Assembly: GCF_016026235.1 (NCBI RefSeq)
Contig: NZ_CP065613.1
Length of the DNA stretch: 64,000 nt
Direction: 5' to 3' (one strand)
Source of the DNA: Escherichia coli
GTDB taxonomy: Bacteria; Pseudomonadota; Gammaproteobacteria; Enterobacterales; Enterobacteriaceae
Shown: piece by piece, positions 52,883 to 54,358 of the stretch
Numbering within the stretch: position 1 is the first letter of the stretch
Layout of the letters: the number at the start of each line of letters is the position of its first letter
The notes under the pieces: generated by a model
Told to the model about the DNA's origin: nothing
What the model saw: only the letters and a program-made list of their open reading frames with translations
Databases searched by the model: none
Program-made: the position numbers and the translations under genes

Positions 52883-53038
52883 ATGGATACTATCAATCTT
52901 GGCAACAACGAATCTCTGGTGTGCGGCGTGTTTCCCAACCAGGACGGCACGTTCACCGCGATGACGTATACCAAAAGCAAAACGTTTAAAACCGAATCTG
53001 GAGCGCGTCGCTGGCTGGAAAGAAATTCAGGTGGGTGA
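52883..53038 (+). CDS. DUF1391 small protein (YdfA/YdaF-like)
   Basis: 51 aa from ATG 52883; size and position match Qin ydfA. Confidence 0.55.
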   Translation: MDTINLGNNESLVCGVFPNQDGTFTAMTYTKSKTFKTESGARRWLERNSGG

Positions 53039-53039
53039 T

Positions 53040-53168
53040 ATGGATTTCGACACAATCATGGAAAAGGCTTACGAAGAATACTTCGAAGGCCTTGCCGAAG
53101 GCGAAGAAGCTCTCAGCTTCAGTGAGTTTAAACAGGCGCTTTCCAGCCCGGCAAAATCTAACGGCTGA
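53040..53168 (+). CDS. small protein (YdfB-like)
   Basis: 42 aa MDFDTIMEKAYEEYFEGLAEGEE...; below ORF-track cut-off. Confidence 0.45.
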   Translation: MDFDTIMEKAYEEYFEGLAEGEEALSFSEFKQALSSPAKSNG

Positions 53169-53197
53169 TAAGCGAAGCAGCACCGCGAGGAATCAGC

Positions 53198-53416
53198 GTG
53201 CAGAAACGAGAACCCATCATCATCGCGCCAGACTATACCGATGATGAACTTTATGAGTGGATGCGCCAGAAAATTAATGCAGCGCAGGATCTGAAATGGG
53301 CTAATGAAGCCAGGGCTAAGCAGGCTGAAAATCTGTCCGCTCTGGAGCAGGATATCACCAATCTGGAAAAAGCAGCGGCATTAAGCATTGCCAGAATGAT
53401 TACATACCCGCGTTAG
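53198..53416 (+). CDS. small protein (YdfC-like)
   Basis: 72 aa; size and order match Qin ydfC. Confidence 0.5.
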   Translation: MQKREPIIIAPDYTDDELYEWMRQKINAAQDLKWANEARAKQAENLSALEQDITNLEKAAALSIARMITYPR

Positions 53417-53757
53417 TAGCTAATCAACAAAGCTAAGGTTAGTAATTAAGGAGTTCTCCACGGGTGAGGTGGAGTGCGTGCGCCGGACACGGGTGAGCAT
53501 CCGGCACTGACAGTTTACTGAAAGGATATTTCCCTGAAAAGTCAGACCATAACGCGAAAGCGCACGGCGAGGTAGCTGGTTCATAGATAGCCTGTCGTTA
53601 AATTTTCGTCGACCGTGCGCTTCCGGTTGTGGCAATCCGCGAAATGGCGCGGCGGTAAGTATGGCGGGGTTATTCCTTCCCCCGTTGAGGACACCGGGTT
53701 GTCAGGTTGACCATACGCTTAAGTGACAACCCCGCTGCAACGCCCTCTGTTATCAAT

Positions 53758-53815
53758 TTTCTGGTGACGTTTGGCGGTATCAGTTTTACTCCGTGACTGC
53801 TCTGCCGCCCTTTTT
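53758..53815 (+). ncRNA. dicF: DicF-like sRNA
   Basis: TTTCTGGTGACGTTTGGCGGTATCAGTTTTACTCCGTGACTGCTCTGCCGCCCTTTTT matches recalled DicF; lies just upstream of dicB. Confidence 0.6.
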
Positions 53816-53984
53816 AAAGTGAATTTTGTGATGTGGTGAATGCGGCTGAGCGCACGCGGAACAGTTAAAACCGAAAACAGTGTTATGGGTGGATTCTCTG
53901 TATCCGGCGTTAATTGTTAACTGGTTAACGTCACCTGGAAGCACCAGGCACCGCATCACAAAACTCATTGTTGAGGGCGCGATA

Positions 53985-54173
53985 ATGAAAACGTTATTAC
54001 CAAACGTTAATACGTCTGAAGGTTGTTTTGAAATTGGTGTCACTATCAGTAATCCTGTATTCACTGAAGAGGCCATTAACAAAAGAAAACACGAACGGGA
54101 GTTATTAAATAAAGTATGCATTGTTTCAATGCTGGCCCGTTTACGTCTGATGCCAAAAGGATGTGCACAATGA
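53985..54173 (+). CDS. dicB: cell division inhibitor DicB
   Basis: 62 aa MKTLLPNVNTSEGCFEIGVTISNPVFTE... as recalled for DicB. Confidence 0.75.
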   Translation: MKTLLPNVNTSEGCFEIGVTISNPVFTEEAINKRKHERELLNKVCIVSMLARLRLMPKGCAQ

Positions 54174-54358
54174 ATCCAGTATTTGCACTTATTCTGACGG
54201 TTTTTCTTGTTTCCGGAGAGCCAGTTGATATTGCAGTCAGTGTTCACAGAACAATGCAGGAATGTATGGCCGCAGCAACCGAACAGAAAATTCCAGGCAA
54301 CTGTTATCCGGTCGATAAAGTTATTCACCAGGATAACGAAATCCCGGCAGGATTTTAA
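54170..54358 (+). CDS. ydfD: small exported/lysis protein YdfD-like
   Basis: 62 aa, N-terminal hydrophobic segment, ATGA coupling to dicB. Confidence 0.6.
   Translation: MNPVFALILTVFLVSGEPVDIAVSVHRTMQECMAAATEQKIPGNCYPVDKVIHQDNEIPAGF

Follow-up and report, generated by a model that had tools for sequence, protein, structure and literature searches.

A complete dicBF operon with a K-12-identical DicF small RNA gene in a prophage region of Escherichia coli

The dicBF operon and its DicF gene

We analysed a window of 64,000 nucleotides (nt) from Escherichia coli (contig NZ_CP065613.1), in which a preliminary description had proposed a Qin-like dicB operon with a candidate gene for the small RNA (sRNA) DicF. 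Coordinates throughout are positions within this window, and those of the main features are collected in Table 1. The dicBF operon, ydfA-ydfB-ydfC-dicF-dicB-ydfD, is complete at 52883..54358 on the plus strand, with all five of its open reading frames (ORFs) intact. The three small ORFs of 51, 42 and 72 amino acids (aa) that had been described are ydfA, ydfB and ydfC, and the identification of DicB (62 aa) and of a YdfD-like gene was borne out by matches to PF05358, NF049927 and DUF1482. This is an already known and very common element. Published work already covers the operon, how it is processed, what it targets and how widely it is distributed among E. coli and Shigella prophages (PMC5069750, PMC10448788). 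The gain here is one of annotation, namely a placed DicF gene, the toxic dicB/ydfD module, and a coherent view of the immunity region with its early-left operon.

To place DicF, we scanned the whole window with Rfam at gathering thresholds. The preliminary description had made its candidate depend on a DicF match at 53758..53815, and RF00039 matched 53759..53810 (+) along the whole length of its model (1-52 of 52), at 76.7 bits (E 3.6e-15; gathering score 48). Aligned to the K-12 gene (b1574), all 53 bases of 53758..53810 are identical. The gene stands between ydfC and dicB in a polycistronic prophage operon and ends in a 3' stem followed by a U run. DicF occupies nt 342-394 of the 568-nt spacer and is thus internal to the non-coding stretch, which had been described as ending in it; a further 174 nt remain before dicB. 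The terminator-like 3' end that had been noted is real by eye, consisting of an interrupted stem of 7 + 4 bp, then C and five U. A simple terminator scan did not flag this stem-loop because the stem is interrupted.

The remaining parts of the operon are also closely related to those of K-12. The PF05358 match covers all of DicB (residues 1-62 of 62; 132.1 bits, cutoff 27), and NF049927 scored 130.7 bits, above its cutoff of 100. Between the two dicB copies, nucleotide identity is 95.2% and 59 of 62 residues are the same, leaving 3 aa differences. The start of ydfD overlaps the stop of dicB (ATGA). The next gene of the same leftward early operon encodes an 813-aa exonuclease, in which an Exo VIII-like N-terminal region is fused to an Rv2179c-like 3'-5' exoribonuclease domain; the exodeoxyribonuclease VIII model is matched at positions 1-603 of 877 only, with 941.7 bits against a cutoff of 1269. 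The same order after ydfD is found in E. coli MLI121 and RMDEC465. On the opposite strand, a 200-codon ORF at 53786..54388 (-) runs over dicB and ydfD. The corresponding K-12 frame has stops, with a longest open stretch of 129 codons, and we judged this to be a chance antisense ORF.

DNA similar to 52600..54450 was found in 4754 of 5426 complete E. coli genomes, at a median of two places per genome, where it is annotated as ydfA, ydfB, ydfC, dicB and ydfD. The sRNA gene, dicF, is absent from the NCBI Prokaryotic Genome Annotation Pipeline (PGAP) annotation of the close relatives that we inspected. Similar DNA also occurs in 58 phage records, including isolated temperate phages, one of which annotates a "DicF antisense sRNA", and the DicF core is present at no fewer than 120 loci in IMG/VR (a count of at least that size). 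According to earlier work (PMC5069750), many prophages of E. coli and Shigella carry the operon, and a single genome often has several copies.

In K-12, the 3' region of DicF pairs with the ribosome-binding site of ftsZ, a pairing region defined by compensatory mutations (PMC5069750), and this region is identical in the present copy. Two points weigh against reading ftsZ as a target directly from the window: the host ftsZ lies outside it, and the RNAduplex energy of DicF with K-12 ftsZ (-45..+15; -31.8 kcal/mol, covering the Shine-Dalgarno sequence) was equalled by 100 of 1000 dinucleotide shuffles of DicF. A longer 160-nt K-12 ftsZ target yielded an uninformative long-loop duplex. Since the duplex is no better than that of 10% of shuffles, the proposed targeting of ftsZ derives from the identity of DicF to its K-12 counterpart.

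Table 1. Operon, control region and adjoining prophage end in the 64-kb window; pi is nucleotide diversity over 61 divergent copies
Feature	Position	Strand	Details
cro/YdaS-like helix-turn-helix (HTH) gene	51228..51488	-	86 aa from ATG 51488; HTH_3 E 5e-4; divergent from repressor gene
oR-like operator cluster (pattern search)	51528..51590	.	AATAGCACTGTTATT (51528), AATAGCGATGCTATT (51553), ATTAGCAATCTTATT (51576); starts 25 and 23 bp apart
Putative prophage repressor	51603..52103	+	166 aa from ATG 51603
paaA2-like antitoxin	52123..52317	+	Pfam PaaA2 E 2.1e-21; NCBIfam RelB antitoxin 91.7 bits
ParE-family toxin	52317..52607	+	Pfam ParE_toxin E 1.8e-17
Terminator-like hairpin and T run	52622..52643	+	closes repressor-toxin/antitoxin operon
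Putative pL/dicBp-equivalent site	52664..52705	+	promoter-like TTTACA-17-TATTGT with upstream TG, 52677..52705
ydfA	52883..53038	+	51 aa; DUF1391 E 1.9e-29; 93.6% nt identity to K-12, 4 aa differences
ydfB	53040..53168	+	42 aa ORF; 98.4% nt identity to K-12, 1 aa difference
ydfC	53198..53416	+	72 aa ORF, GTG start; 99.1% nt identity to K-12
Non-coding spacer ydfC/dicB	53417..53984	+	568 nt, without credible ORF
Long hairpin	53547..53632	+	helices 53547-53553/53626-53632 and 53558-53567/53613-53622 (minimum free energy fold)
Hairpin	53696..53732		pi 0.012
DicF sRNA	53758..53810	+	Rfam RF00039; 53/53 identity with K-12 b1574; stem-loop then CUUUUU; pi 0.014-0.025
dicB-leader structured element	53822..53963	+	15-bp long-range helix 53824-53838/53949-53963 (inverted repeat I2) around hairpins 53906-53932 and 53934-53948
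Segment on DicF side of conserved hairpins	53839..53905		pi 0.039
Hairpins in dicB leader	53906..53948		pi 0.0037
dicB	53985..54173	+	62 aa; PF05358 E 5.7e-39; NF049927 130.7 bits, cutoff 100; pi 0.076 (codon positions 1+2), 0.12 (codon position 3)
ydfD	54170..54358	+	62 aa; DUF1482 E 1.2e-24; 90.6% nt identity to K-12, one codon shorter
Exonuclease gene	54452..56893	+	813 aa; Exonuc_VIII E 7.4e-36; Rv2179c-like 3'-5' exoribonuclease domain E 7.7e-68
Small DUF4224-type ORF	56952..57155		
Integrase gene	57155..58195		
tRNA-Ser	58226..58312	-	
ORF in mtfA position	58367..59203		
tRNA	59304..59376	+	

Control region and immunity

Upstream of ydfA lie a putative repressor gene and, divergent from it, a cro/YdaS-like gene. 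In a 99.4%-identical region of RMDEC465, the counterpart of 51228..51488 is annotated as a helix-turn-helix protein and is followed by a YdaT-family gene. Residues 2-82 of the repressor matched lambda repressor (1lmb) when searched with phmmer against the PDB (E 1.3e-9). Pfam placed HTH_3 and the related HTH_31 on residues 37-85 of the 166-aa protein and found nothing else, with no peptidase S24 domain. The NCBIfam DicA subfamily model matched only the C-terminal residues 106-162 (57 residues), with 32 bits against a cutoff of 101, a weak resemblance to DicA at this end of the protein. The likely repressor of this operon is thus not DicA. The antitoxin and toxin genes at 52123..52607 sit between the repressor gene and a pL-like promoter, which is the position of lambda rexAB.

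The exact 15-bp palindrome AATAGCGATGCTATT has only two copies in the 64 kb, one in the cro/cI intergenic region (51553) and one upstream of ydfA (52664). In the former region, the sites at 51528 and 51576 are degenerate copies of it. At the pL-like site, AATAGCGATGCTATT (52664) overlaps the putative -35 element and the related AATAATGATGCTATT (52689) the putative -10 element, 25 bp apart, and the first two operator sites are separated by 25 bp at both control regions. The preliminary description had placed the operon under repressor control. This part of the claim stands as a reading of the operator-like palindromes shared by the cro/cI region and the promoter-like site of ydfA, through which the repressor would control dicBF. 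Several observations tell against control from this site. The promoter matches the consensus at 9 of 12 positions only, promoter-like matches are not enriched in the region (7 versus 5.1 in shuffles), and the pairing of this repressor with these operators is proposed from sequence logic; activity of the promoter and expression of this copy are both predicted.

The weak promoter match and the lack of enrichment would also suit an operon lacking a repressor-controlled promoter of its own, into which transcription of the repressor-paaA2-parE operon reads past 52622..52643 to give low, constitutive DicF and DicB. The upstream operon is co-directional and ends only ~35 bp before the putative -35 element, and K-12 DicF builds up in stationary phase even without induction (PMC10448788). 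Nevertheless, a terminator-like hairpin and T run stand between the two units, and the operator pair over the -35 and -10 elements keeps the 25-bp spacing seen at oR. In addition, the analogous promoter PL933P, downstream of paaR2-paaA2-parE2 in prophage CP-933P, has been shown by experiment to be active and under the control of PaaR2 and YdaS (Jurenas et al. 2021, PMC8630535). We consider supply of the operon by read-through to be quite improbable, and favor repression at the shared palindromes.

Homology to other dicBF prophages and phages starts at ~52715-52717, directly after the -10 element, which implies a mosaic module boundary. Among complete E. coli genomes, RMDEC465 alone has the whole immunity region at ≥99% identity; the next-best full-length matches in E. 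coli are only ~80% identical, and no match in the phage collection searched for this region reaches upstream of ~52715. Hence, this immunity specificity is rare among complete E. coli genomes, and its combination with a clear operator palindrome is one of two mildly new aspects of the locus. RMDEC465 is also the only E. coli genome that shares both the immunity region and the serU site described below. At its locus (9221..10622 in the numbering of that locus), the interval between ydfC and dicB is without the DicF spacer; in its place are a hypothetical gene and one for a Rha-family regulator. This replacement suggests that dicF is a swappable cassette within the operon, and that the region is a mosaic hot spot.

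We also considered the leader at 52712..52882, between the promoter-like site and ydfA, as a structured leader or antiterminator RNA. It had no Rfam match and folded worse than shuffles (z = +2.0), and the candidate was rejected.

RNA structure, processing and conservation of the spacer

The 570-bp structured non-coding stretch of the preliminary description corresponds to the 568-nt spacer. Its fold reached -214.9 kcal/mol against a shuffle mean of -185.6 (z = -4.5), and none of 100 shuffles was as good. We then aligned 96 distinct spacer variants and tested ten helices taken from the minimum free energy (MFE) fold of the window sequence and the Rfam DicF structure. Pairing was retained in 98.3% of cells, compared with 36-48% when the 3' partners were slid by 1-3 columns, although this percentage is inflated by the structure having been drawn from the window sequence itself. 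Two-sided changes occurred at 8 pairs versus 2.1 ± 1.1 in shuffles. What tempers the case for these helices further is that most of their support comes from conservation or one-sided, wobble-compatible change, not from strict covariation.

Two of the predicted long helices coincide with processing ends known from the literature. Across the 96 variants, the two helices of the hairpin at 53547..53632 are paired in 92.7% and 98.4% of cells, and two-sided changes affect 5 of their pairs. A 190-nt, RNase III-dependent DicF species is known from K-12 (PMC10448788), and its start maps to 53621, on the 3' arm of this hairpin. Downstream of DicF, the perfect 15-bp helix 53824/53949 is paired in 99.4% of cells, with variation nearly all between G-C and G-U or between C-G and U-G. 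A 72-nt DicF species has a 3' end made by RNase III (PMC5069750), and this end maps to 53829, on the 5' arm of the 15-bp helix. Both RNase III-dependent ends thus fall within the two long helices. From the predicted fold, the hairpin is the probable RNase III site giving the 5' end of the 190-nt precursor, and the 15-bp helix is the probable downstream RNase III site.

As shown in Table 1, nucleotide diversity differs widely along this part of the operon. Relative to the third codon positions of dicB, variation is 5- to 30-fold lower in DicF and the hairpins that flank it, which argues for purifying selection. The low diversity is not merely a result of having chosen loci by their DicF core, because the segment 53839..53905, between DicF and the hairpins at 53906..53948, varies more than these hairpins do.

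The dicB-leader element was also the subject of a permissive Rfam scan, in which 53822..53962 matched STnc100 (RF02076) at 36.5 bits (E about 1e-6 to 7e-6), short of the family's gathering score of 47, in a partial alignment to model positions 21-154 of 206. The outer 15-bp helix and two terminal hairpins are reproduced, including the motif UCACCnGGAgGCACCnGGCACC. Membership in STnc100 was rejected given the subthreshold score and the location of true copies elsewhere in related phages: genuine copies (136-165 bits) in a related phage locus belong to the late region and have tRNA genes, not DicF, as neighbours. By the Rfam criterion, 53822..53963 therefore bears a weak resemblance to the family and is not a member of it. 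A 2026 preprint linked STnc100 to the PasD sRNA family and mentions neither DicF nor dicB. The weak STnc100 resemblance, together with the very strong hairpin conservation in the dicB leader, is the second mildly new aspect of the locus. It is unlikely, albeit with some chance of being right, that 53822..53963 is released from the dicBF transcript as a second functional RNA, or that it acts in cis as a conserved regulator of the translation or stability of dicB. If so, a well-studied operon would hold one regulator more than has been recognised.

Two other pairings were examined and not retained. In the MFE fold, the Shine-Dalgarno sequence of dicB (53973-53978) paired with 53807-53812 on the 3' side of the DicF terminator, yet in most variants, K-12 among them, the helix is broken by the sequence GAGGAC. 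Inverted repeat I9, through which the 5' seed of DicF (53758-53771) would pair with the dicB leader at 53927-53940, was not supported: position 12 of DicF changes from G to A in ~8 variants without a compensating change at 53927-53940, and comparable inverted repeats arise by chance in the region.

Prophage setting and comparison with known systems

The arrangement at the int end (Table 1) is the same as the serU-mtfA-tRNA-Asn neighbourhood in MLI121 and RMDEC465. This shared end structure places the prophage at the tRNA-Ser gene serU and not at the Qin site. The leftward part of the prophage contains a Q antiterminator gene, four tRNA genes, hok/sok, head genes and contractile-tail genes. Taken together, these results make us confident that an intact dicBF operon takes the pL position in a defective lambdoid prophage, which is integrated at serU in a chromosome of the E. 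coli/Shigella type.

Several neighbouring features deserve mention. The four phage tRNA genes (43368..43674 (-) and 43873..44562 (-)) are directly downstream of the Q antiterminator gene; in Stx phages, this Q/tRNA position is followed by stx. The antitoxin RNA sok was matched at 46575..46750 (-) in the nin-like region (Rfam, 118.9 bits), implying a hok/sok type I toxin-antitoxin locus. An IS4-like DDE transposase gene (30796..32037 (+)) lies inside the contractile tail-sheath region, where the tail sheath ORF (29711..30724) is shortened; the ORFs of the terminase and the ipaH-like protein likewise look shortened. The prophage is probably defective. At its far end, the ipaH-like gene (16200..17543 (+)) encodes leucine-rich repeats and a NEL E3 ubiquitin-ligase domain (E 4e-77); counted from a TTG start, the ORF has 447 aa, fewer than the 547 aa of IpaHe in RMDEC465. 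It adjoins Rfam matches to IS009 and the Shigella sRNA CssrB (14635..14838 (-) and 15595..15774 (-)). The ipaH-like gene and its neighbours suggest an origin in Shigella or enteroinvasive E. coli, and the relatives of the prophage point to the same background. Outside the prophage, a match to the core-genome sRNA rseX (5341..5430 (+); Rfam, 96.9 bits) supports a position of the window in the yedS-serU region of the chromosome.

We find it scarcely credible that prophage decay has left the DicF-like sequence and the small ORFs as an inert relic, kept by recent descent and not by function. The defective look of the prophage (the transposase gene in the tail sheath region, the shortened terminase and ipaH-like ORFs) and the cryptic state of K-12 Qin itself would fit such a relic. 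Against it, none of the five ORFs is disrupted, the DicF sequence is that of the functional K-12 copy, the 61 copies show the low variation noted above for DicF and its flanking hairpins relative to dicB third codon positions, and the operon also occurs in isolated phages.

Assuming a functional operon under repressor control, the K-12 mechanism can be carried over to this copy, since its DicF has the K-12 sequence and its DicB has 3 substitutions in 62 residues. In the lysogen, the 166-aa repressor, which is of a non-SOS type with a CI-like N-terminus and no peptidase domain, would bind AATAGCGATGCTATT-type operators at oR and at 52677..52705 and keep the operon off. A lapse in repression would then give, as in K-12, a ~1.1-kb transcript ending at the DicF terminator or read-through into dicB-ydfD. 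RNase III would cut the hairpin 53547..53632 and the 15-bp helix 53824/53949, with the cut sites as mapped above, after which RNase E would trim the 5' end to leave the 53-nt DicF; both enzymes process the DicF transcript in K-12 (PMC10448788, PMC5069750). DicF with Hfq would block translation of ftsZ, xylR, pykA and manX. DicB would recruit MinC to the septum, stop Z-ring assembly, and block ManYZ-dependent entry of phage DNA, while YdfD would act as a lysis protein. Each of these activities is known from K-12, where DicF and Hfq act on ftsZ and metabolic targets, DicB exerts a MinC-dependent block and ManYZ-dependent phage exclusion, and YdfD causes lysis (PMC10448788, PMC5069750).

We compared the locus with three known systems, beginning with Qin of K-12 (ydfABC-dicF-dicB-ydfDE, b1571-b1577). 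Gene order from ydfA through ydfD is identical on one strand (an order shared with other E. coli prophages), nucleotide identity is 91-99% from 36 nt upstream of ydfA through ydfD (98.2% in the ydfC-dicF spacer and 96.6% in the dicF-dicB spacer), and the start-stop overlap of dicB and ydfD is the same. However, K-12 homology begins only 36 nt before ydfA, and the promoter and leader upstream of ydfA are unrelated to K-12 dicBp. The upstream genes here are a CI-like regulator, paaA2 and parE, not a DicA/DicC immunity region. Furthermore, ydfE is an IS2-truncated pseudogene in K-12, whereas its counterpart here is the intact 813-aa exonuclease, and the int end of K-12 Qin lies beside ynfP, rspB and rspA in place of the serU site. 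Hence, the earlier label "Qin-like" is apt for the operon, in gene order and nucleotide identity, but not for the prophage, which differs in both site and immunity region.

The immunity region resembles that of CP-933P from O157:H7 (paaR2-paaA2-parE2, ydaS-ydaT). In both, a CI-like regulator gene is followed by genes for a PaaA2-family antitoxin and a ParE-family toxin, Cro/YdaS-like and YdaT-family genes are divergent, and a pL-like promoter with operators comes after the toxin-antitoxin pair, ahead of division-inhibitor genes (dicB). The gene order of a PaaR2-PaaA2-ParE2-type region (HTH regulator, PaaA2, ParE and a divergent ydaS/ydaT-like pair) is present here. That dicB-type genes are coupled to immunity regions of the PaaR2 type is already published (PMC8630535). 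The CP-933P operator consensus GTTTAGTAA is absent from 51400..52900 even at one mismatch. The presence of AATAGCGATGCTATT-type sites in its stead points to an immunity specificity different from that of CP-933P.

In lambda, the early-left layout runs from cI and rexAB through a terminator to oL/pL, then into an operon with the division inhibitor Kil and recombination/exonuclease genes that ends at int. The window departs from this layout in that we identified no N gene or nut site, the repressor is without a RecA-cleavable domain according to Pfam, and the division inhibitors are DicB and DicF in place of Kil. The overall plan is nonetheless alike: a repressor gene with accessory genes, a terminator, an oL/pL-like site, and an early-left operon with a division inhibitor and an exonuclease that ends at int.

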